From NCBI GenBank assembly GCA_016206825.1, contig JACQQY010000113.1:1-35860 (forward strand): a stretch of 35,860 nt of DNA, written 5' to 3'. This stretch comes from Candidatus Omnitrophota bacterium (GTDB lineage: Bacteria; Omnitrophota; Gorgyraeia; 2-02-FULL-51-18). Within the stretch, counting starts at the first letter, position 1, and the number at the start of each line of letters is the position of its first letter. Made by a program: the position numbers and the translations under genes. The notes beneath the pieces were generated by a model. That model ran no database searches. It saw only the letters and a list, made by a program, of their open reading frames with translations, and was not told the DNA's origin. Below are positions 1 to 32,500 of the stretch, one piece after another.

Positions 1-1
1 C

Positions 2-2428: not shown

Positions 2429-2431
2429 GTT

Positions 2432-2448
2432 ACCTCATCCACCTCTTT
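2432..2448 (-). promoter_or_regulatory. Shine-Dalgarno candidate(s) for the gene starting at 2428
   Basis: The minus strand reads AAAGAGGTGGATGAGGTAAC-ATG, with GAGGTG 11 nt and GAGGT 3 nt upstream of the ATG. Confidence 0.6.
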
Positions 2449-2551
2449 CCCCCTCTCCTAACCTCCCCCACGAGGGGGGAGGAACTAACCCAGAAACCCA
2501 ACCATTCCCAACCACTATTCCCCTCCCTTTATGGGAGGGGCGGGGGGAGGG
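2448..2551 (+). repeat. GC-rich REP-doublet-like palindromic element, copy B, intergenic
   Basis: Two hairpin arms in inverted orientation are separated by a 32-nt A/C-rich spacer. The element fills most of the 145-nt gap between the two genes and is inverted relative to copy A. Confidence 0.88.
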
Positions 2552-2573
2552 TGATCTACCTCACTAACCCCTA

Positions 2574-8500: not shown

Positions 8501-11500
8501 CGATCGCCACGTTGCCAACACCAACGACTGCCGCGCCTCCGACGTACTGGGCGCCCACCTTGAGTCTCGGAACCCCTGTAGCCAATCCGCTTCCCCATTT
8601 TAACGCCAAACCAAACCCAAATCCCTTCAAGAAAGTATCCCAACCCACCTTTTCAAAAAGCCCCTTGCCTTGAAGAAGATTAGACCCAACCTGCCAGCCA
8701 ATATTCCCGAACGCTCCCAAAAATCCCATCGTGGCATAACCCGTCAACGGATTGGCAAAGACACTCCCAACTCCCTTCGTTCCCAAAAGACCCTTTTCAA
8801 AGCTGAGGATGGTTTTGCCCGTTGCCGTAACCAACTTAAACCCATTCAGAATCCCATTCGCAACGGCGAATCCGCCCTGCAAGGAGGCTCCCCAGAAGCC
8901 GTTGTTAATCGCTCCGCCTATCGCCTGAGCCCAGTTGATTTCCTTGCCCTGATACCAAGACATCCCAACGTTGGTTCCCAGGGAAATGCCGCCCCACAAT
9001 TCTGCCCAAAGCAACGTTGCCGTTCCACCTGTCAAAGCGACACTGACGACAATGCCCGTGATGCCTATAACAGCCTTTGTCTGCAGCCACAAACCGGAAT
9101 CCGTAAAGAGACTCTCGCCCCCTGCCGCATGAAACCACCATTTGTCGTATAAGCTTTGCGCCAAATAAGCTTCCCTGCCGGATTGTACCTCGAAGGATCT
9201 CGTCAATCCCTTTAAGGCGCCGGGAGCGGTTTTCTCCATAGCCACCAGCTTATTGACGAGATCTTCTCCCTTCAAATCCCAGAGACTCGACCGATTCGAC
9301 AAATCTTCAACCACGAAGCGATTGAAACTATCCTGCATGAGATAGTCGCCGGCCGAAGGCAGATCGATCGACGCGACGATCCTCTCCGCTTGATGCTGAA
9401 GCGACAATTCCCGCATGGTCGCTTCGACGGCGTTAAACCTTCCGCTCTCCAACTCGTACGTAAACTGGTCAAACAACGTTTTCATCTGGGTTGACTTGTC
9501 GCCCTTATAGTCGCTTTCCACTTTTTGTCCATAAATTTCATGGGCTTTGGATACGGCGAGAAGCCCCATCTCCCCGCGCCTAATATCCAAAACCTCCGGA
9601 CCCACGCGCTGGATGGATTGCACATCGGTATAAACAAACTGCCCGCTCCCCGTGACTTCCGAATTGCCAACACGCAGAGTCTGAACCTGTTCACCCACAT
9701 CGAATGTCTGATTGGCCAAAGCCGCAAAGCGGCCCTCACGAATCGAAATACTCCCCTCGCCAAAAAATTGCTTGCCGTCTTTGTCTTTTACCACCTGGAT
9801 GGAAAAATCCTCGACCAACCCTTTCTTTTCACCGCCAGGCGCGCCCATCTCCTTCCAGCCCTGGACCCTGTCTCCCATTTCCAGAAGAACGTAACCTCTG
9901 TTATGCAACGCACCGGACTTCAAGAACAACGAATCTTTCCCAAGCTCCACCTCGTTCGTCGTGAGCGTGACCCCTCTCTCCAAATCAAGCTTGCTTCCCT
10001 GAACGTTGAAGAAACCCCCTTGAGTCAACGTAAGCGCTAAAACCCCGGAAACGGTAAATTGCTTGCCGCCTGCGGTGAAGATCATTGGCTTATCGCCCAT
10101 TTCCAACCGGAGTTGAAGCAAACCATCCTCGCCTTTCGCTAAAGCGGCCGTCCGACCAAACAAGACCGCGGTAAGCTTCTGATCGCCCAGTTCCTTCCCA
10201 TCAAACCCAAAAATTTTCGTTAGAGGCTGTTTACCGGTGAGATCCGTGACCTGCTTGGCCAAGAAAGTCCCCTTATCGTCGAACAAACTGGAAGAAACGT
10301 TCCTTGCCTTTCCATCCTTCCCAAAAATGGTATCCGAAACGTTATGGCCGTCGATGACGGACGAAATAGAAACCCCTTTCGATTCGTATGCCAAGCGCAG
10401 GGTCGTGTCAACGGTTCCGGCGTATTCTCTCAAGGTTGATTTCAAAGATTCTATCCCGGAAGCTTGGAGGACGAGATTCTGAAGACCCTGCGCAACAGGA
10501 ACCTTATCCAAATCCAACCGGCTGACGTCCGCCGAAAGCCCGATTTTTTGTCCGTCCTTCAGCAAAGCGGGCATCGAAAAAATGACGACCAGATTCGCAT
10601 CCACGGAAAGAACTCCGTTCCCAAAACCCCAGGAGATCTTCTGGATCCGCTCGCTTTTGTAGCTGTCCAATACCCCATGGGTGAATTCTCCTTTAGGACT
10701 CCACATCCCTTTCATGGCCTGCTTCATCTGCTCGGCAGTCAGATCCTTCCCCAACACGTCGCGGACATCGGAAGCGATGGAAATAGCCGGGTTCGTGTTG
10801 TCTTTTTCAAACATAATGTCCACCGACGCCTGGCGGATCGTCTCACCAACCCTTTGCCCAACAACCATATTCGTGACACCCGCCGGTGTGTAGGACCCTA
10901 CCTTTCCCTTTGAAACTTCCAAGTCCGCGCCCTGCCCTATACCCATAAACTCGGCCCACCAGACTCCCCTCAAAGGACCGCCGGAATAGTTTGCCCTGTG
11001 TCCTTTTAAATCCTGCGCTTCGCCTTGGGTAATCATATAAGTGGTGAATGAATCCTTATTCCCCAGGGTAAACTCCACACTGCCGACACCTGACAGCTTC
11101 AGAAATTTCCCTTCTTCAACCTCAAGCCCTCCAATGGAAACCTCCCCGCCTCCTCTGTGTGCCTCATAGCTGTAGAGCATCGTCGTGCCGGGGATCACGC
11201 GCAGCTTATACCCATCGGTCAAAACATCCGTCAAAGACTGCAGCGCCTCCGATTCGCTTCCGACTCGACCCTGCAGGAAACCGATCAGGGTTCGCGCATT
11301 CTCCTCTGAAATCGGAGCCAAGGCATCCGCTTTTGTCTTAAACAGAACTCTTATAGGCTTGTCGGCTCCAAGAGTTTGATTCACGGCTTTGATGCCCGCT
11401 ATTTCGGCTTCTTTACCCGCCATTACATTGATCACAAAGCTCTTCGTCTCAAATTGAACGCCAAATCCCATGGCGCTGACCTTTTGAGCAGCTTCTTTAT

Positions 11501-14500
11501 AATTGTCATCTGTGGCGCCGCCTGCGATTTTTCCTATTGCCGCCATTTGGGTCAGTTTGGCTTCATCAACCTTTCCATCCTTGCCGAGAAGCTGTACGGA
11601 TTTCCCGTCCTTATCCCGTATCGGCACAAAGAAATCAAGCGGCTGGCCGCCGCTTCCGACAGCCTTCTGGGCCATAACCGAGATCGATTCGAGTTGCCGG
11701 TCCTTCATGACAAACTGAAGGATTGTCCCCTCGACAGTTTCAAACGAAGCGGTGAAGCTGGGAACGCTCAACATGGCCAGAAGGACGTCGCCAGGTTTGG
11801 AAACCTTGGAAGCGCGCAGGACGTCCGCAAAAACCGGAACGGAATTCTTCAAGGAATTGAGCGCCCCAATATCCAACCGTTCGCCCTCGCCGAACAACCT
11901 ATCCATCCCTCCGACAAGGCGCGCAAAAGTCATCGCATCGACTTCCTTGCCAAGCCCTAAAAGCTGGAAGGCTCCGTTCAGCTCTGCGCGGAAGTCCATG
12001 ACGGCCTTGGCATTACCAGGAACTGCCAACATGCCGTTTATCCTCGCAGAGAAGCTGTCCATTTTCGTGTGATCCAAGAGCAAATAACCGTTCGCATCTT
12101 TTACAAAATTGCCGGCCTTATCCCTCTTCAAAAACTCCGTCATGCCGCCGGTGGATACCAGAGAAACAAGCTGTGAAAGACCGACCCCCTGCGCGGACGG
12201 ATCAGCCGATTTCGCAAAATCATCGATGGCCTTCTGTAAACCATCCAGATCCCTATCCACTTTTACGTTGACAGGAACGGCGGAGACGACGCCTCCAAGA
12301 GTAAAGTCCGAGGCGGTCTTGCCGATGACAATCTCAATCCCGCCCCCCGTGGTCCGGTTCACGGTAAGGCCGCTTAAATCCTTCAAAGGCACAACAAGCT
12401 CAAAGAGTTTCGTAACGTTCTCGACGTTGTGATTCAAAATCCCCAGGTCCGCCAAATAGACGGCATCTGTCCCGGCCTTCTTCTCCGCCCGCCCCAGCTC
12501 TCCCTTCATCCCGGAGGCAAACGCCGCCGCTTCTTTCAAATATTCCTTCGCCCTCCCAAGGTCCTTCGCCTCAAGCGCGCTGACGGCCTGGTCATACAAA
12601 TAATTCACTGTGCCCCCGGTTCTCTTCTGCTGTTCGACGATGAGCACCGCCTCCGCCGAGAAACCGCGGACGTCAAATTTGCCGCCGACCCACTGACCCT
12701 CCCTGCCCCACAGCTTCGTGAAGGAACCGGCGCCCTCAAGCTTCGCTGTCCCGCTCGCATCGACCATCAGAAACTTAACGGTAACGCCATCCAACGTTCG
12801 CCCTTCTCCCAAGGCCTGCGAATATCTTTCAAATAAACTCTGCTTAAGATCGCCGCGAACGCTGAGTTCAATAAACTCCTTAGTGCCTCGATCGATCAAA
12901 GCCACGTGGGGTTCTTGCAATCCATCCACATACACCACATCCCATTGGAGCCCAAAGCTGCCCGCGATTCTCGCCGCCAAGGCATGGGTGCCAACACAAT
13001 TCAAGCCTTCCGATTCCCTGTCCAAACCGCCGGGCTTCAACGCAATATTTTGCAGGATGAGAGTCTTGATGAAATTACCCATTTCCGCTTTGCCAATGTC
13101 GGTTCGAAGACGGGCGACGTCTGTATCCTTGCTTTCATCAATCCTTTTGGCAAGAGCCTGCCACGGATCAGCGCTCTTTATCTCCGTATCCGTCATGGAA
13201 AGGATCGCCTTTTGGATGGAGGGCGGGACCCCGTCTGGAGTCTTACCGTCTTTTAGTTGAGCGTGGAGAGCCGCCAATACTTCATTCATGGTGCTCCCAA
13301 GCTTTGCAAGCTCGGACGGCAAAGACCTAAGACCAAAAGGAACGGCGGCTGAAAGAATGCGCCCTTCGGCGTCAAACCTAAAGGTTCCCCGCGTCTCGGC
13401 AATGGTCCCGCTCACGGCGATGTGATCAACGGCAATTCCTAAGGTTTTCGCCATATCGAGGATGGCGGTTTGTGCCGCATTGGCATCCGGGAAGTCCTTG
13501 GCAACTTCCACGTCCGTCAACCGCCCTTGAGGATCAAAAGCGAAAACAGCCCTCGTTTCCGGACCAAAGGTGCCTTCCACAACGACGGGGCCGTTGGCGT
13601 CCTTTCTGCTCACGAACGCCAAGAAAAGCTGGGTCGCATCCACCATCACCTGTTTATCCAAAGGCATGCCCTGATTGGAAGTTCCGAGCGCCTTGAATAA
13701 ATTCTCAAAAGATCCCGATGAAGCCGCCTCACCCATGCCAAGATAAATCGCTCCTCTTGCGCTGGAATCCTTGGCGCCCAGTAAAATGCTGAAAAGCTCC
13801 GTCGCGCCGATCTGAACCTTTTGACCAAGACGGGCGTTAACGGCGCCTATCTTGCTTAAGGCGCCGATAAAGCTCTTATCTTCGCCCAAGGTGATTTGAT
13901 CAATTTTGCCGTAAATCTCTAACCTTGCCGAGGCATCCTTGGCGCCGAGGAGCTTAATAAAGAGTTCCGTGCCGCCTAACTCAACTTGGTCCGTGCGGCC
14001 TGCAGCTTTCAACGCATTATTGAGAGATTCAATCCGTTCCAAACTATGACCGAATCGCATAGACTCTGTCTTGATCTCCCCAATCTTGGAGTAAATCTCT
14101 TTCCTTTCACCGGCATTTTTCATCCCAAGCAGAATAGTCAACAGTTCTGTTGCGCCGATCTTGATCTGGCCGTGAGTTGCTTGAATGTCACGGAGAGAAG
14201 AAGCAAATTGAGAGCTTTCGGTGGTGGTAATCTCGGTGAGCCTTGTATAGATATCTCTTCGCGCATCGCCATCCTTAGCGCCTAAGAGGAAGATAAAGAA
14301 TTCCGTGGCCCCAATCTTGATAGTGTCTTTGATGCCCGCTTTGGCGATAAGAACGTTGAGAGTTTGGATATCTTCGAACGCAGTCACAAAATTCTGTTCT
14401 TTGAATAAAACTTCCCCAAACGCAATTTGTGAGATCCTGCCGTAGAGTTCTTGCCTTGCATCACCATTCTTCATGCCTAAAAGGGCGGTGAAGAGCTCCG

Positions 14501-17500
14501 TCGCTCCAAATTTGACTTGGTCCTTGATGCCGGCGTTGGCAAGCTGAGAATTCAAGGTTTGGATGTGGCTTGAAGAATCGACTATTTGATTCTTCTCAGT
14601 GGTCGTAATCCACCTAATATTGGTGTACACAGTCCCCCTTACACCAGCATCTTTCGCGCCTAATAAGAGGATGAACAATCCGGTGGCATCCATTTGGACC
14701 TGATCCTTGATACCTGCCTTGACAAGGTCAGCGTTGAGGTCTTGGATGCCGCGCAAGGAAGCTTCGAACTCGTTCTTTTCGTTTGTGGTAATCTCGCTAA
14801 TCTTCTGGTAGAGAGCCTGTCTTGCCTCACCGCCTTCCGCTCGGATGAGAAGACCCAGTAGTTCCGCTTCTCCCATTTTCACTTTATCCTCAATGCCAGC
14901 GGCCGTAAGCCTGCCGTTCAATTGGCCGATGCCAGCCAAAGCCTTGTCGACTTGTTGGCTTTCATTCGTGAGGGCTTGGACAAGCGCCTGGAGCTTGCTC
15001 GTCTCAAAACTTCCCATGATCCTTCCGGTGGCCGTCTCCATCACCACCGTAAACTCCGTCGCGCTGACAGGGACGTTGAAGATGACGCTCGCCAGGCTTC
15101 GCAGGAACGCCTGCTGGGCGGGGTCGGTCGTGGTTCCATAATTTACGCGCATGGCCTGCGAAACAAACCCTTCTCTCACAAACTTCTCTTCCCCACCCGC
15201 CTCGTCGAGGCTCACCACGAGAGCCTGTTGGGCGTTGGCCGCCGCGCCAAAGACGCCCTGCTTGGTCACAAGGATTTGTTGGCCTTCCCTAAGGATACGG
15301 CCTTCTTGAGGGAGGACGTTCAGGAGCTCCTTCGTGACTCCCATGGCCACTCCCATTTTCACGCCTTCCTCATTTTGGATGATTTGAATAGTGTCTGCCA
15401 GCAAACTTGGAGGAACGGGAAGCTCTACTCCCATGAGGTTGACGATAAAGCCCTTGAAGAAGGCCGCGGCTTCGGCGGTTACTCCTTTAAACTGGAACCG
15501 CAGGCCTTGCGCCGTTCCCAATTCGCCGCCGGCGAGCGTAAAGCGCTCTCGTCCGCCGCTGAAAAGTCCACTGCCCAGAGCCGCCGGAGGCGCGCCGCCC
15601 AGCCCGCCCTGCAGGCGATAAAGCTCGACTCCCTGTTCTCCGGCTTTCACGAAAATTTCCTGGCCTTCCGCGAGACCCGTTTGCTTCGCCAAGCGGTTAT
15701 CGATGCTGAACGTGAAACCGACCTGCTCGCCGAACCGGTTCAAGCCCTGCTGGAATTTACCCGACAAAATGGCCAAGGCCGAGAGACCCGTGAAGGAGCC
15801 CACGAGACCGGCGACGGCGAGCTTCGTGCTCTCATCGAGATCCGCGGCAAACTCCACCAGATAATTCCTGGCCAGATCCACTCCGAGATTCTTTACAGCC
15901 TCATTCTTAATGGCTTCCACGCCTTGGTCTTTGATGGCAAGAAGGCGGTTATTCTGCGCATCGAAGGCTTGGATGAGTCCCCCCTCCTGCTGAATGAAGA
16001 TTTCCTCTCCGGCTTTCACGTTACCGGCCTTTACCAAAAACCCAATCTGCCCTCCGGCCTGATTCGTAACCACTCCAAAGCCGATGGGCGCCGCAAACAA
16101 TCTCTGCGCGAGGAGCTTATAAGAAGCTTCCTGCTCCGGCGTCACCCCTTTTTGGAAAATCCGAAGCTGAGCTTCGCTCACGGTTCCTTTCACCCCTGCT
16201 CTTTCAAAAGCCCGCCGAACCTCTTGGATTTCAAAAAGCGCTTTGCCTCCCTCACTGAGCACTCTTTGCCTTTCCACGTCCACGAGAACAATCTGGCCCT
16301 TGTAGGCCCCCGTCGTGAAGCGCTCAACCTCCCCTTTTAGGTTGGTGAAGGCCGTCAGATTGGAAAGAATCTGCCCTTGGGCGTTGTAAGCCCGCAAAGT
16401 GGAGCTAAGGCCGGATAAGCTCCTCAAAACGTTCAAGGTGGCCGCATCCAGTCCGCTCTTCTCCCCTTCCTTGGTAACCGCGGCGACGACACCGCGAAGC
16501 ACGGCGATTCCCTGCGCGTTTCCTTTCACTTTTTCCTCATGAAACTCCGGAGCAATCAGCGGGGTGCCCTTGGCGTTCTCAATCTCCCCGGTTCGATCAT
16601 TGCGGAAGAAAGCCTGTCCCGAAACGAGAAGAAGAGACTGAATGCCAGGCTGAAGGCTGATCGCCACGGGCTGAAGTTGATTCGCCGTTGCAAACGAACC
16701 CAAAAGACCGGACAACTTCTCACGATCCAGCACGCTCTCCAAGCTCCCGCGCAAGGACAATTGACCATTAATCCTAAGCGAAAAACCGCCGCCCTCCCCA
16801 AGGAGAAAAAGCGCTTCAGAACCCTTCGCGGTACGAAAAGCCCTGCCGAGAATCTGCTCACCCTGAACCGCGCCCGTCTTATCCGTCACCACGCGGCCGC
16901 CTTGATCTACCCTGCCGCCCACAAGCTCAACGTCGAAGACATCCCTGCCTTCTTTGTCCGTTGTCGGAAAATGCCGCAGGCCCACGACCAGTTTTCCCAT
17001 AAACTCAAAGGCCACCCGTATCTGCCGCCCGGCCCGCAATTTTACCTCTATCGTTTCTCCTCCTCTGCTTTTCAACTCCGCATCCAAGACTTGAGACGTC
17101 AACCTATACCGGTCTTCTTTTTTCTCCACAAGGGTACGGCGGCGGCTCGTCGTACGCCCTTCTTTATCTTGAGTAAGCTCAAGCAGAGCAAAACCTTCCT
17201 TCGACCTGAAACCTAAAATCGCGGTCCCCGCTTCGGGGGCTTCCCTCCCCTGCCTTAGAGCTTCTTTCACCTCTTTATCGCTGACGACATGAACGGAAAA
17301 TTCGACGATCTCCCCCTTTAACCCTTCCACCGCCTTCAGCCCCTCCGTCTCCGCGATGATCCGCTTGGCGATGTCGGAGAACTGGACGGCCTTCGCCAAG
17401 AAGAGGGCCCTGCCAAGATCCTTGGTTCCCATCAAGCCTTCGATGAAACTCTTCGAAGCCCTGAAGCTCTTGGACGTGACAAGGCTGTAATTGTCCTGGA

Positions 17501-20500
17501 GCCACTTCCATTGCTTGCCGATACTTTGGGATTTGCTCTCCAAGTCTTCCATGGTGATATCGAAGGTTTCTTGATAAGTCTGCTCAGCGGCGCCCCTCTT
17601 TTTGGCATCCTGGTTCTCGAGGCTTCCCACCATGAGCTTTTCGATTTCCTCCACTATTTTCTTCATCGTATCGGAGTAAGTATCAGGACCTATCAAATCC
17701 TTCGGAGAAATGCTGCTATCTCCAATTTGGATAGGACCTGCGACGGAAGGATCACTGCCGGAAAGAATCTTCGTGAGCCTCGCGCCCTCATCCGCCGTTT
17801 GGGCCACCGGCCGAATGAGATCATAAAAGATGCCTTTTTGGAGCGGTTTGGGTTGGCGCTTAGGCGCGGCCGCCGCTCGAACGGTAGCGTCAAACCTTTT
17901 GGTTGTGAGCTTTCGGATGACGTTGCCCTGGCGGTCCTTGAAGGTCGTGGTCGTTTCAAGAACGCCTCCTTTCATGGGATCTTTCGGATCCACGAGGCTC
18001 GTTTTTTGCTCTATTTCCTCCTGCCCGCCCGACAGGAAAAGGGCGGCGCGTTCGGCGACAATATGCTTTTCGACAATGGCGTTATCCTTGGCTTGCTCAA
18101 GCCGCTTGAGAAGGGCTTCGTGGGTTTTCTCTATTTCTTCCTTTTGCCTTTTGGAGTTGTCTTCGACCGCTTTTCTCTGTTCGGCCAGCCTCGCCAAAGA
18201 GGCTCTTGCGCTCCCGGTGCCCTGGCCATAGGCCTCGTTCAGCACCTCCTTTGCACGATTGACGATCGTCTTGAGCGCCGGAACAAGACCCGTCGTATCC
18301 ACGGCGTTGGCTGCTTTCCAAAGATTCTCAAGCTGCTCCAGACCTTTTTCCAACACAGTAATCAGAACGGTGTTAAATTTCTTGACCCCCTGAAGGTCGA
18401 TGAGCTCCGTCACAACCGACGCCAGTTCCCATCCCCACTGGTATTGCTTCATCACGGCTTCGTACGAGCGGAAGAAGGTCCGCAGCATGGGAACAAGCTG
18501 CTGCGCGAGCAGACCGCGCACAATCTCCGCTTCCTGCCCATTAAGATCTTGAAGCGCCTTGCCTTTTGCCTCTTCCGTCTCGGAGAGCATCTTGTCTTTC
18601 AACTGGTCAAGCTCCTGCTTGCGCCGCTCGAACCTTTTCTCCTCCGCTTCCACCAAACCATTCAAAATCTGCGCAATCGTCTCCGGAAGAGCCCCCAGCA
18701 CGGGGTCATAAAACTCCTCAAGCCGCCTGAACAACTTGAGGTTCAATTGAGCATACCGATCGCCTATTTCTCCTTTGGCTCTTAACTCCTCAATCGTCAC
18801 CTGATCCTGGGCGGAAACTTTCGCGTACGTCGCCGAAGGATCGGTTGCCGTCCTATGAAGAATCCGATTTGAAGTGCCCAGCCCAAGCGGATCGCTGGAC
18901 AAAAGGTCAAAAAGGGCTTTCTCCTTTTCATCCTCCGAATTGTACACGACGACGTTGAAGCCTTTATTCTTGGAATAAAAATCGAGCCAGTACGCCGAAT
19001 TGGGGTATTGGGGCAGTTTGGCGTTAGGATCCTGATCGGTGTAACTGCCAATAAACGGTTTGGCGGTTCCCAGCAACCCACCGATATAGGACTTATAGGC
19101 CTGTGTGGAGTTCCAGGAGCTCCAATAAGGAGTTCCTGAAGAAGAATTCAGGTAAACGACCCCCGGGAAATCAGACCCCTTGTATCCATTTAAAGACGCT
19201 CCAAATTCTCCTCTGAGCGAGGCATCTGCAGTTTCACCCCACTTTATGCCCGTTCCTCCTCCCACGTCGCTGTAGGCTTTCCAGCTAAGAGACAATATTT
19301 TCCCATCGCCAAGATCCTCCGTGGAACCCTGCCGCGGCTGGCCGGTGTAATAAGGGGCGTAGGTGTTTACAAAGTCCTCTTGCGCCGATGTCATGTATTC
19401 ATAAAAAGTACTCGTCACCCATAAGGGGAAAATCGGCGCTTGCCAATCCGCAATCCCACCGGGGTACCCGCCATACGCCGGAACAGTGGGGTAGTAATCG
19501 ACCGTATCGATTAACCGATTCATAACGTATTGATTTCCGGCTACGTACTGCTCGACGATGCCGGACAATGCTTGGGGAAGTCCGGAGTCGTAAGAGGGGT
19601 ACGTGGCGCCCGTGATGGCGCCCGGCGAAAAAACGAGCCCTAACGTTTTAGTTCCCAAATCGCCGATATCCCCTCCAAAGGAAGGATTAAGAGCCCCGTG
19701 GTAGATGCCTCCGCCCGGACGGTGCTGATCGTCCCCCGTCCACGAAGAAGGCTCATCGAAGAGATAATCAAGAATATGACTTTGATAAGACTCCTTATCG
19801 ACCCGGCCCAGGTAATCAGGTGGGCCAAGCTTATTCACAAACGGCATGTTGTCGGGATCAAGGGTCTTTAATACTTCATCGATCGAAAAGGATAAGAATG
19901 CCCGATCCAAATCCCGGCCCAGCCAATCCGGCATCTCCTTGAAATCCGTTTTACTGCCGGTGCCTTCTTCGGTTAAAAGCCCTGCCGAACCAAGAGACCC
20001 GTCTCCTACTTTCTTCTCTGCCTCGAGACGCTCCTTCACTTCCGCCGCGTTTTTGGCCACTTCATACACCGTTTTCGACATCTCTTCTCCCAGCTCTTCA
20101 AGGCCCTCCCGCGTATCCTTTTGAATCTCATAGCTCTTTGAAAGCTCACCGGAGGAAGCGTCAACGATGCCTTTATAAGCCTCCGCGATAGTCTGGAAAA
20201 CCTCCGAAACGTCCGGCAATCCCTGCGCGATGGCCTCGACGTACTTCTTGACAGGTTCAACGTCGAAGTTAAGCTTGTACTTCACGGTAAGGGTTCCATC
20301 CGCTGACTCCGAGCTGACGGTCGCCTTTGCCCAATCCACAAGGGCAGCATCCTCGAACGTGCTTTCGGCCGCTTTAAATTGTTGAAACCTCTCTTTGATT
20401 GTGCCCACGGCCTCGGACCATTTCCTTCTGATCTCGCTCATTTGCTCGGTTATTTTCTCCTTCACGCTCCGTAAGGAGAGAAGGGTGTAAGCCACCGTGG

Positions 20501-23500
20501 CTCTTACGGATTCCCGCAACGCTTCAAGAAATCCTTTCGGACCTAAAAACTTATCCAGTTCTTTGATGGACCGATCCAAGGAAGCTTTGACGGCTGTTGA
20601 GACGTCCTCCGGCAAAAGATCCACAAAACCCGCGCCCAAAACTTCCTGCAGGTTCTCCTTGGCCGACCGGGCTCTCTCAAGCTGGCGGTCCACCTCTTCA
20701 TCCCACCACGAACGAGTAACCGCTCCCGGCACAAAAACATCATCCTCGCTGTAGCCGCCCTGCGCCCGTTGCCACCACGGGTCGTTTTCAAAACCTGCCC
20801 CGCCAAAGAAAGAATCCATGTAGTACCGGTTCGTGAGGTAAGGGGAAGATCTGGGGCCCTCCTCACGGCTTTGCTTAATGGGGCCTTCAAATCCCTCTAT
20901 TTTGCCAATCCCCTCCACCACGAGATCCTCCGGACCGATAAAAAGGCCGCGCAACGCCTCGTCCCGCCCTTCCATCTCTTTCTCCAATTTTGTCTGCGCT
21001 CTTTGAAGGTTCTTTAGACTGTCAGACTCCGTGTCGTCCACGGCGTCCAAAATATTCAACCATAAATCATCCCAATTCCCATTGTAGCTGTCACTGTAGG
21101 CGTGGCGGGCGGCTTTCCAATGCCTGCGGTAACTTCCTCCCAGATTTGTCAGGAAATCAGTCCCCGTAAGGTTGTAACCGATGCCAGCAGCCCTGGCGAC
21201 CATCTCATCGATCTTGGGTTGGAGATAACCTGCGCCTGCGGAACTCGTGCCGGAGGAATCCGTGATGGAACCGAAAGCTTGAAACACAAAGGTATCGTTC
21301 CACCTGCCCTTAAACGCATCCAGCATGGCACCGCTCTTATTCTTGAAATTTTCAAGAGCCGCGTTGGCCGTCTTGAAAAGCTCTCCCTTTTGGAGTTGGC
21401 TTGCCATCGCGGTCACGTAGCTCTTGCTGAGCTCTTTAAACTGCGTCCAAGAATCCGCCAGGTTTTTGCCGCTTGCTTCGTTAAATTTCCTCAGCTCGTT
21501 CTTGAAGCCGTCCTTGAAGTTGTTCAGAAGGGCCCACTTTCCATCCACGGCCAGTTTCTTCACGTAGAAGTAATCGTTCAAAGCGGCGTTCATTTCCCGC
21601 AAAGCGCTTTGGATGCCGCCCTGCCAGACGGGGTATTTCTTGTCCAGCTTGAGATTGAGCGCATTGATGAAGTCGGAAAGCTCAGTCCCGCGGATCTGCC
21701 GGAGAAGGCCGTTATCGAGAATAAAACCGTAACGCGCCTCCCAGAAGGATGCAATCTTTCCGGAAGGATCGTACTCGATAACCGCCGTCGCGTCGGCCGA
21801 GCTTTCCAAATCCACGCCGACGGCATACTTGGCGAGAAGCTCCCTGCTCTCCTTGGTGTAAACCGTCACGCGGATACTCCCATCTTCCAAATATTCGATT
21901 TTCTTATCGAAATTCTCGAAGGATCCCTTCCCGCCTCCCCCGCCCCCTCCTTCTAGATTCTCAATGGCATACAAGAGCCGACCCGTCGTGTCACCCAACA
22001 CCTTCGGATTCCGGCCGTAAAACGTTCTTCTCGTCCACTCTCCAACCTCATTCACCGTCTCGGCCATCATCGTGATCTCTTCCTGCTTCACCGTAGAAGG
22101 ATCACGCCCCGTCCAACGGACTCTCTTCCCGGTGGCCGGGTCCGTCGTAAACCCGTATTTCTCCGCCTCTCCGCTTGAAATAAAGGCATGGAACCACCTG
22201 CCGCCGGAGCCGAGAACCGCTTTGGCCTGATCAACCGTAAGCTCGGCGCCGGTTACGGGCTTTGAAGCCGCCAAAATGTTCCCATCCCAAATCCCGGTGA
22301 AATAGCTTCTCGTGCTCGTCTTCAACTGCCCTTCTTCCAGGAGAGTGACGACATCGTCATCGCTTATCTCCTTCACCACGACATAGTGGTCCGGCCCGAT
22401 GTGAGCGATGACGGGATTGCCGGCCTGGACGAACCGCTTCAGCTCATCAAAATCCACCCGATAGCCAAAGAAGCTCTTCTGAGTTTCAGCCTCCGCCGCT
22501 TCTTTCATCGCCTGAAGCGAAATAGTAAGATCCCCTGTCGTCGTCTCCGAGATAACCCCGCTTTGAATGTCTTTGGTGATTGCCTGAACGGCCGTCGACA
22601 CCAGGTTCGGAATCAAGCCGTTTGCGCCGTTGATCAAAAGGGATAAGGCGCCAAAGGCGCTGGCGCCGAAGTGCTTCGATTGATTTTTAAGCCAGGTGAG
22701 AATGCCCTGAACCATGCTCTCGGTAAGAGCCCCTCCGCTCAACCACGTCTGGTACTGCGTAACGTAATCGGCGCCGAAGTATTGTGAATACTCATCGGGA
22801 TTGTTGATAAAAAGCGTGATGTAGTACACGAAGGAGCCTTCCCCCTCGGTTTGAGGGGTCGCCTCGCCTTTCAAAAGCCTTTTGCCTTGCTCCGGATCGA
22901 CCTGAAAGTAATACAGGTATTCCCTAACCCAATTCGGAGCGGGCGCCGGCTGACCAAACGGAAGACCGATCCGTTCGGTAAGCCACTTCTCCACCCCGCT
23001 GATAATCGCCTCCCTCGTCGCCGCATCGAGCGTCTGTTCCCCGCCAAAGACAAGACTGCCTGAAAGGGCTATATCCTTTCCTTCGGGAATCCTGGCAATG
23101 AAGTGGAGACTCGGATCGTCCACAATTTCCTGGGCAAGATCTCCTAAAGTAAGAGACTTCGGATCGAGCGGATCTGTTTCCTTCATCAAGCGCGTCGTCT
23201 CGCCCAAAAGAACCTTCACTCCGCCGACGGTGACAAAAGGCGCCGCCGAACCGAAGAAATCAATGGGTTTGGTTTCGGGAATCACACGAGCGCTTACCAC
23301 CACTTGACTGGCCACCCACCTTCCTTCAACCTTCTCAGCCGTGATATCCACCAACACCAGCGGCTTTTTCTCCGTAAGGGTGATTCTCGTGGCAACGCCG
23401 TTCTCCGCCGTGACCTTGGCATAGATTTCATTTCCCAGAAGGGCGCTGTCTTCAAAAAAGCGGGCAAAACCCTCTTGGCTGACCGCCGAACCGTCCAGAC

Positions 23501-26500
23501 CTGTGATCTGAGTATCCGCCGTCACCTGGTACGTCACCCCTTTTACGGTGATGGTCTCAAGGGACATCCGGCCGTCTGCGTCCTTGCCCGTTTCAAGGGT
23601 GTTCACCAAGTAATCCGGATTGTTATGGAGCCAGTCATAAAGTTCCTGAAGGGTAAGAATTGTTTCGCCTCCCGTCTTGACAATGGCACGCGACAGGTCG
23701 ACGGCTTCACCCTTCACCTGAAGGGACTGCCCAGCAGCATCGAGGCTCTGAAGCTTTCCGTTAAAGCGCTCAAAGAAGGTCGTCGTCAGCTCTATTTTTT
23801 CCACCTCCCATGGACGAGTACGAGAAAGAGCGGCCTTGGCATAAGTAGGGATTCCATTCGCCGCGTTCTTCGCAAAAAGACGCTTCATCTCTTCCCAAGT
23901 CAAGATGACCCCCAAAGAATCTTTAATGACAAGCGAAGAGGAACGTGTGACCGAAACGCCCCCTAGGGTCAAAGCGTCAGCAACCGTATCTAATCCTGCC
24001 ACTCCACGGATCAACTGAGGCTGGGCCGTTGAAAGCTGAACCTCTCTGTTGTCATGGCGGGAACGAAGCTGAAGTTCCAGCGCCTTCCAACCGGTATCGG
24101 TTTCAATCAACTTGACTCTGGCGTTTGTCTCAAGTGACAGCTCCGAGTCAAGGAAAAGGGTGTTCGAAACCTGCTCAGCCGTCAGGAGAGAGCCGGCCGG
24201 ATCCGTCATCTTAAACCCATTGGCTAATGGATACTCCACCCCTCCCACTTTGACCTTGCCGCCAACTACATCCACTGCGTCCAGATTGTGACTTTCCGAC
24301 CGGGTATGCAAAGACTCCGTTAACACGTCGATGGTTTGAGCTTCGTATGTTCCATCCCGCAACATCATCCCGGTGACGTTGACAAGCGTCGGAATGGAAC
24401 GTGCTTGATTTTCGGAGCGAATTTGCTCAAGCCGTGCCCCGCCGATCGCAGCGCCCAAGCTGTCCCTGATAACCGCGGATGAAGTGACGGTGAAATCCAC
24501 GCCATTGATCCGAATCGAACGAAGCTCACCGTTGACGAGCGTGGCGCTTTGAAGCTCATCTTTCATTTGCGTCTTACCCGAAATATCCGCGGCGACTTTG
24601 ATGGTCTTGGCAACCGCTTGGCCGGAAACCATCTCAAAATGAACGTCAAAATAAAGCCCGGAGCTTCGATTCATCAGGGTTCGAAGCTGCTGGGCGCTTA
24701 CAAGGGTGAGATTCGCGTCAAAAATGGCGGTGGAACTATTGACAACGGCGGTGACGCCGTTCACCGTGACGGCGCCAGCGCTTGGATCCTGGGCATCCCA
24801 GGAAAAAGCGATCTCCTCCGGCTTCACCCCCGTCCAAGAGCGTCCTTCCGGAATCAAAACGCCCTCCGCTCCAAGACTCATGGCATCCGCGCGCCAGAGA
24901 ACGGAACGGACCTCATTTTGAACGAAGGCATCCGTTGAAACAAACCCATCGGGCAATCCGGCGGCCGGTTTTTCCAGATGATAAGCGGCATCGGCTGGAA
25001 TTACTTCGACGTCATCAAAGAAGGCCGGCGCCCCTAAGTTGGAAGTACCGAGCGCGATCTCGCCGACGCTATAGGCGGCATTCGTCACATTGAGAAACTG
25101 GGCGGTATTGCCATCCAAATAGACTCGGATATTGTCCCCGTTGGCGTCTACTTTCAAGGTGTGCCACGCTGAAGGATCAAAACCGGAGAGGGACGTAAAA
25201 CCCAACTGATTGCCCAGATTGCCGCTTTTCACTTCATAGAGCAGGAGATAAATTCCGCTTTCACTGCTTGTGCCCACGCGAACGGCATACCCGTCATTGC
25301 GGCTGTTCAATCGGAAATAAAGCTGGAGGTACTCATATAAGTTCCTCTTAAACTTGAACTTGGTTTGAATCGTGCCGTTCACGATCGTCTTACCGTCCAA
25401 GAAGGACAAATGGTCACCACCTAAGGTGGACTGGCGGTAAGCCATGTTCCCCGTTCCATCATCCACCACCTCCCAATTGCCTCCGTCAATTCTGGGGGTG
25501 AAGGGAACTGCGGTGGGCTTGGGGGAAAAGCTCTCGCTCCAATAAATTTCTTTTGCCGGAGCGGGACTGCCCTGTAGTGTTCCATCTTTCCCGTTGCCGG
25601 ACAAATCCTTACCGGTGCCGTCGTCGAAAGAATAATAAGCCAAAAGCCCTTCCTCATTCCCCTGGAGCTTGGTATTCATAACGCTTTGGATCTGAGAGGT
25701 TGTGAGGGCTTGGCCAAAGACGGCCGCTTCATCGATCGTGCCCATGGCACGGCCATAACTTAATTGTCCTTCTCCCCCTATCGCCGCCAGATCCTTTGTG
25801 ACCTGACGATTGAGAAGATTACCAACGGGATTTCCATCCATATAGAACTGAGTCTTTCCCCCGGAACCAACCGCCGCTACATGATGCCAGCCGCTTGACA
25901 AAGAACGAACGGAGTAGCCGCTGTCGACGGCGTTGTAAGGATAATAGGTATAACCGTTCATCGAATCCAAAATCGCCAGCGTCCCATCGGACCTCACCAC
26001 AAAGTGAGAATCGGAAGGTCCGCTGGAGCTTCTGAAGAGCGCGTTGTAAGAATAAGAGCTCTCAAGAGCGGGAAGCGGAAACTTCACCCATGCCATGATC
26101 GTCCGGTCGCCGTTCATGTTGATGGGCGGGATTGTCATCGTATCGGCCGTCGACGCGAACCGCATGGCATCGCTGTAGATTGCCACTTTTTTGATCAGGA
26201 CTTCATCCAGCCAAGCGTTGCCGTTCGCCGCAGCGGTGTCCGTCGTCTGTGTCCGGTCGTAAACCCACCGCAAGGTGTATTTGCCCTTCGGCAGATTCAG
26301 CGTGCTCCTCAGCCAACCATTGCTTGCCCCGGCAATCGATGCCGCTTCCTTCTCGTCGATGTAAAGTTTGAGAGCATCAGTCGCCTGCGAATCGATTCTC
26401 CAACTAAACTCCAACATGCCGGCGTCATCGAGCTCCGTCGTGGTTTGAAAAAAGGAACTCTGACCGCCTCTTGTGGCTCCCGCCTGCGCGGCAAAACCAC

Positions 26501-29500
26501 CTTGTCCATAAGCGAGAGAGTTCTGCGTTTTCCAGGCACCATCGCCCCCTGTCAGGAACCTTACTTGGGAGGGAGTGACGGAAACGATTGGGATCGCTTT
26601 ATCCTGAATCGCCGTCGTTCCACCTTGCAAGACTCCGTCATTTCCGGTGGTGGTCAGGTCTTTCGCCGAGCCGTCGTCGAAAGAATAATAAGTCACCAGA
26701 CCATTCTCACTCCCTTGGAGCTTGGTGGTCATCAGGGCTTTGACTTCATCAGCCGTGAGGGCGCGGTTATAAATGGCCGTCTCATCGATGGCTCCATTAA
26801 AGTATCCCGTGTTGTCGCCCTTTTGCCCTATAAAGAGATCTCCAAGCTGTGTATTGACGCCGAAAGAAATGGGATAACTGTTAATCTGCGCCCCGTCCAA
26901 ATAGATCTTTACGTTCGATCCCTCAAGGGTAACGGCCAAGTGATACCATCGGTTCAGGTCTGAAGAAGGAAGGCCGGCAGAAACGGAATAATAACCTCCA
27001 AAGCTTGAGACGATCTGGTTGTAATAGTTGTCAACGTAAACTCCCCAGAAATTGCTAAGAGCGGACGGCCCATAACCAAAGAGCCAATTTTGGCCGCTGG
27101 AATAGGAACCTGCTTTGTCCAATCGGAACCACGCCGCGAACGTTCTGGAAGAACCGCCGAGCGGTAAATTGGCTGGGTTTGTTACCTTGGCAAAATCATC
27201 CGTTCCATCGAACTTAAGCGCGGTTCCTTGAGGCTGTGATTTTACTTGAATTTCATCTACCCAAGCTTGACTGCTCGGCTCCCCAAAAACTGTCTTGGTC
27301 CGGTCAAACACCCAGCGAAGGGTATGAGCTCCTTTTGATAGTTTCAGCATTCCCTTTACCCAGCCGCTGCTCCCGGAAAGAGGCGAGATCGCATCCTGAG
27401 CGAGATTCCCATCGACGTAGAGGCGAAGCTTATCCGTGGCAAGGGCATCTATCTTCCATTGAAACTCCAAGAATCCATCCCCCTCCAGATTCACTTTCCT
27501 TTCCAAATAAGAACTGGTGCCCGCCAAGGTATCACCCGCCTGGAGGGCAAAGCCTCCCGCATCGTAAGCGGAGGTGTTTTGATTCTGCCAGGACGGATTT
27601 AAAGCGCTCACCACGGCAAAAGAAGAATCTCGGACAACCGTTCTTTGACTAACGGCCACTGCGCCTGCCGAGAGTGTCCCGTCATACTTGACGGCGTCTG
27701 TCGAAAGATCCCTGGCCGTGCCGTCGTCAAAAGAATAGTAAGCCAAAAGCCCCGTTTCATCGCCCTGAAGTTGTTGATTCTTATAGGCTTGGATGTCCGT
27801 TGAGGAAAGAGTCCTGTCAAACAGAGCCGCTTCATCGATGGTTCCAATATTTTGACTGCCCAAACCGCCGTTGCCTATCACCTCCAAATCCCGAGTCACT
27901 TGCGTGAAAGCCGTGCCCACGGCATTTCCATCAACATAAATGGTGGTTACCCCTCCAGAGATCGCCGCCGCCACCTGATGCCAGCCGCTGCTTAGAGACC
28001 CGATGTTGTACCATGAGTTGTAGAAGGAAAAACCGTTAAAGACCCCCAGATAGTTATCGGAGGAAATGACAAGATGGCTATAACCAGCCGCCTTGGAACT
28101 GAACAAAGTGCGATAACCCCCTGTGGAAGGAAGCGGGAACTTGACCCATGCCATGAGGGTGCGGTCACCGCTCATATTGATGGGCGGAACGGTCACCATG
28201 GCGTTTGTTGCGCCAAGGCTTAAACCATCTCCATAGGGTTGATCTTTTTGAATCTTCACCTCATCCACCCAAGCGTTGTTGTTGGCAGGGCCGGCGCTGA
28301 CGGAACTGCGCTTATAAACCCACCGCAAAGTATGAGCGCCTGCCGAAAGAGCATGGCTTTTTCCTGTCCAACCGCCGCTATTTCCGCTGACGGAAGCTAC
28401 AGGGGTATCCAGGTCATCCACGTAAAGCAAAAGTTCATCCCCCGGATCGGAATTCACCATCCAGTTAAAGCTCAAGGTGGAAGTCTGACCGACATAGACG
28501 GTCCTCTGAAGATAAGAGTTCTGACCGGCGCTGATTGTTCCCGCTTGAGCCGCCACCCCTCCTTGATCGAAAGCGGTTGTATTTTGATTCGCCCAGACCG
28601 CGTCTCCGCCGCTGGTGTAGGGAGCGGGGATCATGGTTCCCGTGGTGTAGTCCACGGAAGCAAATCCATCGTAGAAAAACGTCTTCTCATCCAATGGGAC
28701 AAGGCCTCCTTGCACGGTCCCCTTCACTCCACTCACCAAGTCAACCGCCGAGCCGTCGTCGAAAGAATAATAAGCGGCAAGACCGACTTCGCTGCTTGAA
28801 GGCCGGGTATCCATCAAACTTTGGATCTCGCCTGCGGTGAGAGGACGATTATAGACGGCCAATTCATCCAATTTCCCTCTGAAATAACCGGCATCGCCTC
28901 TCCCGATCAACGCCGGCAAGGTGCTGGAAACAGCGGAAGCATATAACGCATCCGTTTCATTCACGAACTGGCCGTTTTGATACCATCTCAGCTTTTTATT
29001 CTCCAGATCGCGGACAACAGCCAGGTGTGTCCAGGCGTTTCTGGCAAGAGAGGCACTCATCTTAAAACTCTGATAAGGATAATTATTCCCTCCTCCCGTG
29101 CCATAAGAATAAGAGACGCTCCCGTCCGTGTTGAGATAAATAGTGCCTTCGCCGCCATAGGCTTTGGAGAAAAGGTTGCTTGAGGAGGCAAAATCACTGG
29201 GATTCACCCATAAGGCAATAGTTTGACTTCCGGTGATCTGCAGGGAAGCAGGACTGCCCAAATCAACATAGTCATTGGTTCCGTCGAAACTCAAAGCCTT
29301 CCCGTAAGAAGCGGCTTTCTCGATCTTGATTTCGTCCACCCAGGCATTGCTGCTTGGTGGAGATCCCTGAGGCGTCTGGGTCCTGTCATAAACCCACTTC
29401 AAAGTGTGGGCGCCTGCGGAAAGAACCATCTTGGCATTGGTCCAGTCGGTGTTGCCGGAAATTAGGGGAACTTGGGTGGGCACTTCACTTCCATCCACAT

Positions 29501-32500
29501 AGAGCCGCAGCTTATCCGTGGAGTTCCCGTCGACTTTCCATTGGAACGTCAAGGCTCCGCTTTCTGCCAGTTCCACAACCTTCTCAAAATAAGAGCTGGA
29601 CCCGGCATCCGTGTTCCCCGCCTGCATACCGGCGCCTGCAGGATCATAGGACACTCCATCCTGAACCGCCCAGCTATCTGTCACATACCCGCCAGAGACG
29701 TTCAAAACCGTATCGGCCAAATACCCAAAGTCGATCTTCTTGGAAGTCTTGTCTTCCAAAAGAAGCAGTTCGTCGATCCATCCTGCGTCCTGACCCACAA
29801 GCCCCGTGTCCCCGCCGTCTTTCGTATAGACCCAACGCAAGGTGTAGGCCCCCTCGCCCAAGTCCCTTGTCACCCTTTGCCAATCCGCTTCGCCGCTGAT
29901 CACGCTGGTGTCATCGATCACAACCCCGTCTTTTAAGATTTCGAACTTGAACAAGTCTTTCCCCTGCTCCGAAGAGACCTTCCAATTAAACGCCACTGTC
30001 GCCTTGTCGGAGTTCACGCGGATGTCTTTGGTAATCACCGAGCTCTGGTTGTGGGATACCTTCCCGGTCTGCAGGGCATACGCCTTCACAAAACTGCCGG
30101 CAAGATTAGTGGCTTTACCGGCCTGATTGTTGGAGTCAAAGAGATTGGCCAACTCCTCCAAAGTATAGTATTTCCCGGCGGCGTCTTTGATCGTCTTGGA
30201 GCTGGTGACCAGAAGTGTTTCCCCATTCAACGTGACCGTTCCATCCTGAACAAGGACCCTCTGAACTGCTCCGCTAATGGAGCTCGTGGCTCGATCGGTA
30301 ATTTCATGCTGAGTTTCCGCAAGGATCCTCGCGGCCCGCCACGTATTGCCGACTTTCATGGCGGTTACCTTTACGGTCACGGGAACATCCGCCGGCACAA
30401 TGGATTGAAAGTCGCCGGACAATAAACCTTTAAGGCCTCCGACAGACCGGTACTCAAAGGTATTGGGCGGCGTCTGAAACTCGCTCCGCACACCTTCTCG
30501 TATCACACCGTACCGGTGGTCCTTATACCTGATTTCCACCTCCGTAAAGAAACCATCCGTCTCGGTGTCGTTGCCTACAACAACGTTCATACCGTTGACC
30601 GTCATCTGGGTGATCTTCTTCACATAAGAATCGTCGGCATCATCCACAAACTGGATATCCTGCGCCTTCACCGCAGAGCTGGTGAACGTGTCCGCCTTGT
30701 TCAAGATGCTCGTCACCCTGATCTTTTCCGCAACCCACTCTCCGGCTTCATCTTTCTTCACTCGAACGGACAAAAGGAGCTGTCCTTTGTTCGAAAGCGC
30801 CGCCAAATCACTCAAACCGCCTTGTAAAAGGCTGCCCGATGAATCCTCCACTAGAGTCTGCCCATCCACCTTAACGCTTTGTCCGCCGATGCCGACCACG
30901 CCCAAAGTGGAATCGATGGAACTGGGTGGACCGCTGAATTCATCGCCGAGGGGAAAAGCAGGCGTCATCTTAAGCTCTTCCGCCTTCCAAGCGTCCCCAA
31001 CTTTTACCAATTGAACCGACACCAGAGCATCCGCCGGCAGGTCTTGTAAACTCAAAGGATCCCCGGCCGCATTCCTCATAACGGTGCTTGAATCCACCTG
31101 AAACTGCATCCCGTCCGCCAAGGTGATCGTTCCCTTCGTCGAATCCGTTTCATCGATCGTCTTGACACTGACCGCGGCGGCACGCCTAAGGACGGTGTCG
31201 ATGCGTGTTAACACTTTCAGGCGTGACAAAACCAAATCGCCCGAAGAGGAAAGAACAACGCTTGCATCCACTCCGGTTGTAATTCCCATCAACCGATGAT
31301 AAGAGAAAATACCGGATAACTGGGCAAGGCTCAATGGATTGCCGCCCGTATCGCCAAGGATGCTCGTGTCTTTGACCTGGATATCCTTTCCGTTGATCTT
31401 TAGAGTGCCGACGGCGGGAGCTTGGGTGATTGTCACACCTTCCAAATTACCGGTAAAGGCGGCCTGTCCCTGGGCATCGGAAATAAGGTTGATTTGTTGA
31501 AGAACCCACTCACCGCTTATCCTTCTGACTTCCAGTGCGACAAACGTGCCGACACCGCCGGCTTTATTTCCCTCCCATAAGGCACTGAAAGCGGACTGGC
31601 TCATCGTTACCCCGTTTACGTCTTTGATCACCGTGCCATCCTGCAATTTCATGATTTGACCCGCAAATAAGATGGAACGACCGACGGCGTCTAAATTCTG
31701 AAGCGCCCCCGTAAGGCGCGTGGCAGCAATGTCAGGCTCCTCTGCCGTCAAAAGAACCTGTTGAGCTTCCCAGCCCGAAGCAGACTTAAGAGCCACGAGC
31801 TTGACCGTTGCAAAAATCCCTTGATCTTCAAAAGCTTGGCGGATGGCCTCCAACCGAGCCGTCTTCTCTGCGGCCGTTCCTGAGATCACATTGCCTTTCG
31901 CATCCTTCACAATCGTGGTATCAACGATTTTGATATCATGATCGGCGAAACGAACCGTGTCCGCACCCACGCCTTGTAAAATCCCCGTAAGAACACTAAG
32001 ACCCGAAGGATTGTAGAGATTGTCGACTGCTCCCTTTACCTCTCTCACAGGAGCGGCGACCACGTCTATTCGATCTGCTTTCCATGAGCCATCTTGCAGT
32101 TGAGCGGCAGTTACCTTAAGGTACGTGTCGGCGGGGTTGGCATCATAAATTTCTTTGAGCCTGCTTGCGGTGATAACAGCTCCCACGCCGTCGTAAATCA
32201 AAGTGCTGCTATCGATCTTCACGCTGTTAGAACCGAGCCTCACCGAACCAGCGCTATTGGGATCGAGCTCAATACCCAACAAAGCGCTGGTGAGAGTGGA
32301 GGCAGCCTCTTCAGCAAGGGCAAGAACAGCGCCGTTCGGAAAAGTCAACGTGCCGCCATCGGCAAGCGCAACGGTCCCGTCGCCCGGCAGCACGACAGCG
32401 CCTCCGGCAAGTAAAGTGGCTTCTTCGTTGTCAGACAGTTGGACAGTCCCGCCAACGCCAATGTTAAGAGTTTCACCCTTCACAACGACCGTGCCGCCAT

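Follow-up and report, generated by a model that had tools for sequence, protein, structure and literature searches.

The closest described systems to the locus reported here are the PEP domains of the PCAT/AMS type, C39 bacteriocin-leader peptidases represented by the solved structures of LahT150 (6mpz), PCAT1 (4ry2, 6v9z) and ComA (3k8u). The available portion of one study gives Cys27, His101 and Asp117 as the catalytic residues of LahT150, and states the double-glycine rule as Gly at position -2, Gly, Ala or Ser at -1 and hydrophobic residues at -4 and -12 (PMC6363468). C39 domains have also been described in the giant proteins of Omnitrophota, which they possibly cut, with the cleavage points stated as unknown in the accessible part of that preprint (West-Roberts et al., 2023, bioRxiv 10.1101/2023.11.21.568195). 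Here we analyzed contig JACQQY010000113.1 (assembly GCA_016206825.1) of a Candidatus Omnitrophota bacterium. The window, meaning the whole stretch that was analyzed, is this entire contig (C93) of 35,860 bases, and it belongs to a genome of 1.29 Mb in 120 contigs that is 84% complete. It carries a giant open reading frame (ORF; 2574..35858, minus strand, as for all window features named below) of 11,094 codons, which takes up almost all of the window, is 5'-open because the contig ends and has a single stop, at its own end. Within the encoded protein, a C39-like domain has Ser in place of the catalytic Cys and is followed on the same chain by a double-glycine-type motif.

We consider that the two form a self-processing C39 module which cuts after Ser4551 and releases 6,543 residues, and we assign this reading a probability of about one half. 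The preliminary description of this DNA had left autoprocessing, trans-processing and a locked latch side by side; our data favor the first without deciding between them. The module would be derived from a C39 bacteriocin-leader peptidase, as a papain-fold domain with its own recognition sequence about six residues further on in the same chain. The amphipathic part of the motif (L-12, V-4) would lie in the leader-binding groove and G4550-S4551 in the narrow active-site entrance, so that the S4551-G4552 bond would be set beside a Ser4400-His4491-Glu4508 triad. One intramolecular cut would split the N-terminal part, rich in lectin domains (at least 4,551 aa, peptidase included), from the C-terminal 6,543 aa. 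The fold, the equivalence of residues, the conservation of triad and motif and their fixed spacing are shown below; docking in substrate mode, serine catalysis and the occurrence of the cut are all three steps that we infer. Most simply, the tail would be bound by the domain from which it extends, either as substrate or as pseudo-substrate. We further propose, tentatively, that a C39 fold with a Ser-His-Asp/Glu triad works once, as a serine autoprotease that severs the chain it belongs to behind a double-glycine motif carried within that chain.

According to the AlphaFold2 model (pLDDT, the predicted local distance difference test score, 88.1; predicted template modelling score 0.83), aa 4372-4533 of the giant protein (22260..22745) have the C39/papain fold. 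Solved C39 folds align to aa 4395-4533, and the two N-terminal helices of the domain are specific to the homologue family and extra to these folds. Foldseek matched the model to PCAT1, LahT150, ComA and the C39-like domain (CLD) of HlyB with probability 1.00. VIA alignments gave Z 13.8 for LahT150 (6mpz_B; root-mean-square deviation, rmsd, 2.4 Å over 121 residues), Z 13.5 for ComA (3k8u; 2.1 Å over 119 residues) and Z 13.3-13.7 for the PCAT1 chains; taken together, the best chains of the PEP domains share the fold at Z 13.3-13.8, rmsd 2.1-2.5 Å and 118-121 residues. The corresponding values for the HlyB CLD were Z 12.3 (3zua; rmsd 4.2 Å, 128 aligned) and Z 11.7 (7sgr; 2.2 Å, 117 aligned). When the profile of the homologue family was compared with the PDB, it found PCAT1 at E 2.4e-7; phmmer with the single 341-aa segment against PDB sequences gave only one match, an irrelevant histidine kinase at E 1.1, and the family profile was needed for a PDB match.

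The only Peptidase_C39 match of the giant protein in Pfam (PF03412, aa 4447-4533) scored 23.5 bits against a cut-off of 22, and 27.8 bits in the six-frame search of the genome. The alignment covers profile positions 45/46-130 of 133 only, leaving the Cys-bearing N-terminal third unaligned by HMMER. Because this marginal match spans only the His-bearing two thirds of the model, the identity of Ser4400 needed separate proof, and two routes agree that Ser4400 occupies the C39 catalytic-Cys position. First, hhalign of the family (127-row alignment) against seven canonical Cys-type C39 domains of same-phylum genomes (probability 98.7%, E 1.6e-16) placed Ser4400 on the Cys of the 'CGP.AL' signature. 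Second, the structural alignments begin five residues ahead of the catalytic Cys of each target (model 34.. versus LahT150 22.., with Cys27), which puts model residue 39, that is Ser4400, on the Cys if the first five aligned residues are gapless. The superposition implied by the preliminary description is thus borne out, as are its Ser codon and its retained His.

Ser4400 (AGC, 22659..22661) lies at the N-terminal end of model helix 38-52. His4491 (CAC, 22386..22388) opens a beta strand at the catalytic-His position, and Glu4508 (GAA, 22335..22337), 17 residues past the His, takes the position of the third triad member with Glu here, not Asp. Seven residues before the nucleophile, Gln4393 (22680..22682) is a candidate for the oxyanion-hole Gln by analogy with C39 and papain; among the 126 homologous segments described below, its column holds Q in 62 and R in 29. 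The nucleophile, His and acid positions are thus the same as in PCAT/AMS PEP domains, and the recognition motif is of the same kind, with G-G/A/S after hydrophobic residues at -4 and -12. The window domain differs from them in having Ser for Cys and in lacking fusion to an ATP-binding cassette (ABC) transporter, two features that define that family, and in bearing the substrate motif on its own chain. It also has the two extra N-terminal helices, a -7 position that is not hydrophobic in most family members, and a nucleophile-to-His distance of 91 versus 74 in LahT150, roughly 15-20 residues more.

The motif LTVDQAKAVLGS (aa 4540-4551, 22206..22241) begins six residues past the end of the C39 fold, to whose last strand it is joined by the linker PVTGAE (aa 4534-4539, 22242..22259). 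The preliminary description had placed a double-glycine-like motif directly after the fold at 22206-22244, which equals ELTVDQAKAVLGS exactly, with GG next; aa 4539-4553 (22244..22200) read ELTVDQAKAVLGSGG. The leader rule is followed at G4550 (-2), S4551 (-1), V4548 (-4) and L4540 (-12), with T at -11. The scissile bond predicted from the register with canonical G-G/A/S sites is Ser4551/Gly4552 (22203..22208), where homology to most relatives also stops; 6,543 aa follow S4551, close to the 6,540 or so estimated earlier. The motif is internal (aa 4540-4551 of at least 11,094) and on the same chain as the peptidase-like domain, and is not a separately encoded N-terminal leader. Past it, the protein continues as G-G-R-W-F..., a soluble segment of about 85 residues (aa 4552-4636, 21951..22205) common to the closest homologues only (the alignments of P0003 and P0005 extend to query positions 334 and 324, past the motif), and then a run of seven Gly (aa 4637-4643, 21930-21950) that lies 85 residues past the predicted cut site.

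A loose regular expression for the motif matched the giant protein twice; 200 shuffles gave 0.32 matches on average and 2 at most, so that the result is within chance. The significance of the motif comes from its being kept in register across homologues, not from the single sequence. The second match, VTPSQVRFLTGG (aa 3094-3105, 26541-26576), was rejected as a site, having no C39 context and being within chance. Since solved C39 folds stop at model residues 171-172 and the motif corresponds to model residues 179-190, the motif is an addition to the common C39 fold. In the AlphaFold2 model this tail is ordered, with pLDDT 98 and 96 over model residues 171-190 and 63 directly after G-S, and the motif forms a short helix at -10 to -5 and is extended at -3/-2.

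When aa 4300-4640 were searched against 1.84 billion representative proteins, 202 matched at E<=1e-3, 67 of them at E<=1e-10. Nearly all are 1,000-7,000 aa long, and most alignments end at query positions 252-260, i.e. at G-S. The best 150 of the 202 proteins were re-scanned into 167 domain rows, of which 126 (119 proteins) spanning query 100-225 were kept and 41 dropped; counts out of 126 refer to this set. The nucleophile column held S in 91, C in 33 and other residues in 2, the catalytic-His column H in 124, and the acid column D in 62 and E in 60 (122 with D/E), with a His-to-acid spacing of 16-18 in 124 of 127 rows. Within the motif, L/I/M/V occurred at -12 in 123 segments, S/T/N at -11 in 99, E or Q at -8 in 87 (56 and 31), I/V/L at -4 in 119, R/K at -3 in 98, G at -2 in 121, and A or S at -1 in 111 (70 and 41). 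The strict form of the motif was present in 107 of the 126 segments, comprising 86/91 Ser-type and 21/33 Cys-type segments. Together with independent same-phylum loci, these counts upheld the expectation that the motif recurs after C39 domains, and in these alignments it is as conserved as the catalytic positions.

The distance from the invariant Gly of the terminal W-x-G to Gly(-2) was 23-24 residues in 77 of 109 motif-bearing rows (range 22-44), and such tight spacing between fold and motif fits an intramolecular geometric constraint. A FastTree phylogeny built without the nucleophile and motif columns gave at least four S/C interchanges, compared with 25-32 in five of 200 label shuffles, a result from a quick tree that deserves moderate trust. 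Two of the Cys clusters bear the Ser-type context 'FG.CA'. Retention of S/C at the nucleophile (124/126), His (124/126) and acid (122/126) together would not be expected of a dead domain.

A hydrophobic, membrane-like stretch starts within 30 residues of the residue preceding the predicted cut (P1) in 78 of the 126 homologues, typically as G-(A/S) followed by FF..., and the C-terminal remainder in these proteins is mostly 780-1,080 aa. Unlike most homologues, the window protein and its four best matches have no hydrophobic stretch right after the site. In one homologue with such a stretch, P0012, RHS repeats, Laminin_G_3 and an Ig-like domain lie upstream. Natural gene fission at the motif was not seen: none of the 126 segments ends exactly at P1, and C-terminal remainders of 29-61 aa resemble contig truncations. 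A related-locus search of the contig collection with the single protein found no relative.

Several homologues showed departures from the simple arrangement. In eight (P0034, P0042, P0049, P0054, P0070, P0071, P0076 and P0088), the Ser-type domain is split by an insertion of about 60-430 residues between the nucleophile helix and the His strand, yet a G-(A/S) motif still follows the second half. Four others (P0041, P0128, P0130 and P0144) carry tandem copies, a degenerate first one with I/G at the nucleophile (unread in P0144), N/M at the His and 'GT' at the motif, and about 250-320 residues later an intact Cys-type copy, for which 'GA' was read in three of the four. In the multi-copy Cys-type proteins P0006, P0010, P0018, P0023, P0043 and P0082, the motif occurs on the first copy and not on later ones, as if only one copy had a cis substrate.

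PF03412 matches were found in 61 of 151 same-phylum genomes, many of them in frames of 10,000-45,000 aa and one in a 39,687-aa frame of a one-contig genome. The sizes of giant ORFs in relatives point to Omnitrophota as the phylum. When the hidden Markov model (HMM) of the family was run on 30 same-phylum loci, 20 scored above 60 bits, of which 8 were Ser-type and 12 Cys-type; the motif was present in all eight Ser-type loci and in 9 of the 12 Cys-type loci, in giant ORFs (e.g. ...SQAKAVLGSG and ...SKKIIGG). The Cys-type copies mostly lie about 60 residues past a conserved N-terminal transmembrane helix of giant ORFs, which is the N-terminal position of C39 in the accessible text of West-Roberts et al. 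(10.1101/2023.11.21.568195). Nine loci (L020, L011, L010, L024, L023, L015, L027, L019 and L022) begin with basic residues and then the transmembrane helix 'FKAWIR.VAF....F.PEQ..', with a Cys-type C39 about 60 residues on and then the motif in eight of the nine, L019 being without a clear one. Such an arrangement would let a giant protein cut itself off its own membrane anchor. In L003 and L007, a canonical Cys-type C39 in ORFs of 2082 aa and 1628 aa is followed by ...YDELVSIKGG, a textbook E(-8)L(-7)xxI(-4)xGG that hhalign places in register with VDQAKAVLGS of the giant protein. Another class of the phylum contributed three Ser-type loci with ...VRGA followed by FF..., and a transmembrane stretch comes after the motif.

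The same genome holds a second copy of the family (L033; contig C64, bases 1-2805, plus strand), whose nucleophile is lost at the contig start. It reads ...NHYLVIQ...DPGAG..., then LSTEETQTIRGA and, after the predicted cut, FFFFLIPAIIGAL (FFFF...), which is a near-perfect double-glycine motif. Past the motif there is a Gly-rich hydrophobic region of about 300 aa and then a C-terminal part of about 500 aa with no Pfam hit. In the assembled 84% of the genome no Cys-type or canonical C39 was found, and a six-frame search with the family HMM recovered only the C93 and C64 copies. Fragments of giant genes also occur on C37 (1-6742, minus strand), C46 (the whole contig, minus strand) and C61 (2-9964, plus strand) as loci L034-L036. 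C37 has an N-terminus with a transmembrane helix like that of other giant ORFs, without C39; the C46 frame ends with the same sequence with which the C61 frame starts, which makes C46 and C61 consecutive pieces of one gene. None of the three has a C39 or BLASTP similarity to the window protein at E<=1e-5.

A number of points weigh against self-processing. Papain-fold peptidases normally lose their activity when Cys is replaced by Ser, and naturally occurring Ser forms, SERA5 of Plasmodium among them, are a matter of debate. A conserved His proves little by itself, since HlyB retains one in its inactive C39-like domain. Within the motif, Gln4544 and Ala4545 replace the Glu and Leu of the leader rule at -8 and -7, as the preliminary description had noted, and -7 is relaxed in the whole family (A 53, L 18, M 10; L/M in 28/126). 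The N-terminus of the giant ORF is missing because the contig ends there, and a Cys-type C39 could lie in the missing part. P0002 (5504 aa), the closest homologue among the matches listed, has exactly such a pairing, with a Cys-type copy and its motif at the N-terminus and a Ser-type copy further inside. In favor of self-processing, a lone Ser-type copy with no Cys-type copy detected was counted in 104 of 151 proteins, so that the Ser domain would usually have to act alone, although absence of a Cys copy from the same protein is a lower bound, many homologues being contig fragments.

The structural predictions count for self-processing, within limits. Both the AlphaFold2 model and the domain-peptide complex prediction were built from our own 38-row alignment, and docking of the motif in substrate mode is what we infer from confidence values. 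Predicted with a 43-residue peptide, the domain reached an interaction prediction score from aligned errors (ipSAE) of 0.47 (runs 0.47, 0.34 and 0.47) against 0.00 for the best control, with at least 48% of contacts agreeing between runs and partner pLDDT of at least 50. Among 80 solved complexes, 58 attain the mark applied to this score, as do 2 among 110 mismatched pairs, but passing values of 0.60 or less are found in only 7 of the 80 solved complexes and in both passing mismatches. The complex prediction supports binding weakly, and since solved C39-leader complexes exist, the predictor may have memorized them. Of the modelling check on motif docking proposed earlier, the ordered motif stood and the complex gave this weaker answer.

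The first alternative is that a dead Ser-type domain holds the motif permanently as a pseudo-substrate and joins the two halves, either rigidly or so that they could be released mechanically or chemically, like the HlyB CLD that binds without cutting; we regard it as rather unlikely. The HlyB CLD (3zua) is a C39 fold without catalytic Cys, as in the window, and substrate binding is its established function. Its presence among the structural matches (Z 11.7-12.3) speaks for such a joint, together with the exchange of Cys for Ser, the modelling of the motif as an ordered part of the domain and the relaxed -7; moreover, small residues at -2/-1 are required for binding as much as for cutting. But a domain that only binds needs neither S or C in 124 of 126 segments nor a His and an acid conserved at more than 96%, S and C have been exchanged repeatedly, and Cys-type relatives with the same cis motif exist. 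The HlyB CLD has Tyr, not Ser, at the Cys position and is part of an ABC transporter, whereas here the replacement is always Ser, exchanging with Cys, the motif is in cis and there is no transporter context: no ABC transporter domain was found by Pfam at E<=0.01 in the 11,094 aa.

The second alternative, which we hold to be improbable, is processing in trans or between domains, in which a different Cys-type C39 cuts the motif and the Ser domain merely presents or protects the site. Candidates for that protease are a copy at the lost N-terminus of this protein, a C39 of a different giant protein and an exporter of the PCAT type. The missing N-terminus of the window protein, the pairing of copies in P0002 and the many giant ORFs of the phylum that begin with a transmembrane helix and then a Cys-type C39 all speak for it. 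Against it, the family is represented just twice in the 84%-complete genome, where no canonical C39 was found, and 104 of 151 proteins have a lone Ser-type copy; a motif docked in its own domain would, in addition, be shielded from another enzyme, and a fixed linker length is unnecessary for cleavage in trans. Finally, an accidental resemblance of a C-terminal helix of the domain family to a double-glycine motif, to which the chance-level regular expression and the deviations of the giant protein at -7 and -8 might point, is very improbable given that the five recognition-defining positions of this protease family are conserved at 69-98%, that canonical Cys-type relatives show the textbook E-L-x-x-I-x-G-G in the same register and that the motif lies outside the common fold, solved C39 domains ending before it.

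The two portions that self-processing would separate differ in their annotation. Pfam found four stretches of Laminin_G_3 (E 6.3e-79), plus weaker lectin-like matches, all within the first 4,000 aa; these stretches fit in part the beta-rich adhesin half of the earlier description. In the approximately 6,500 aa after the C39 domain, which that description called the helical/enzymatic half, Pfam gave nothing at E<=0.01 except XylR_N below its cut-off (17.5 bits, cut-off 23); in aa 4001-8000 it gave only the C39 match and two sub-cut-off matches, DUF5666 and XylR_N, and in the last 3,094 aa no domain. NCBIfam returned no family for a 1309-aa piece of the giant protein. Hydrophobic windows are few in the C-terminal 6,543 aa, three in all (aa 6679-6700, 8415-8434 and 8929-8951). 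Downstream of the giant ORF there is a gene of at least 809 aa (2-2428) starting 146 bases past its stop codon, with only a sub-cut-off DUF3376 match (15.7 bits versus a cut-off of 25).

The C39 domains described in the available text of West-Roberts et al. share with the window module both the kind of host, giant Omnitrophota ORFs, and the domain family. In the same text, 'double-glycine' has no occurrence, and the cis motif, the Ser form and an internal juxtamembrane position are not mentioned. A 2026 preprint reports an architecture cluster of 24 proteins with PF03412 and mentions no double-glycine site. Our literature search, with most subscription journals and supplements outside it, found no description of a cis double-glycine site after C39 or of a Ser-type C39. 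The presence of C39 in giant Omnitrophota proteins and the idea that it might cut them are already in print.

Two further groups of proteins use internal processing domains. The accessible part of a survey of polymorphic toxins lists HINT, ZU5, caspase-like and papain-like Tox-PL1 domains as releasing peptidases (Zhang et al., 2012, PMC3482391); it lists the C39-related Tox-PLC39 as a toxin domain, not a releasing one, describes no double-glycine site in cis and has no occurrence of 'double-glycine' (PMC3482391). The releasing peptidases are likewise internal and upstream of the C-terminal part to be released, and P0012 combines RHS, Laminin_G_3 and the module, but no toxin or immunity pair was identified for the window protein. 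The other group comprises surface proteins of eukaryotes, in which GAIN and SEA domains are juxtamembrane autoproteolytic modules. The likeness lies in the predicted cut directly before a membrane-like stretch in the 78 homologues noted above; the folds and chemistry are unrelated, and in the window protein no hydrophobic stretch follows the site.

Whether the giant Omnitrophota proteins, of 10,000 to over 80,000 aa, exist as single chains or are cut is an open question in the available text of the preprint describing them. The module gives an exact predicted site, after G-(A/S) and 23-24 residues past the invariant Gly, and about 200 large proteins share it. An active serine form would represent a natural switch of the nucleophile from Cys to Ser within the papain fold and might provide a compact self-cleaving tag, and the repeated exchange of Cys and Ser would show that both nucleophiles are interchangeable in the C39 fold; if it is inactive, it would be a new kind of joint between pseudo-enzyme and pseudo-substrate. 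In the homologues with a membrane stretch, the cut would part a large, apparently extracellular portion from a membrane-embedded C-terminal part, and most family members would have in the module a juxtamembrane device for self-shedding that follows, in bacteria, the logic of GAIN and SEA. For the phylum, self-processing by this module would supply the first predictable cleavage rule for giant Omnitrophota proteins.

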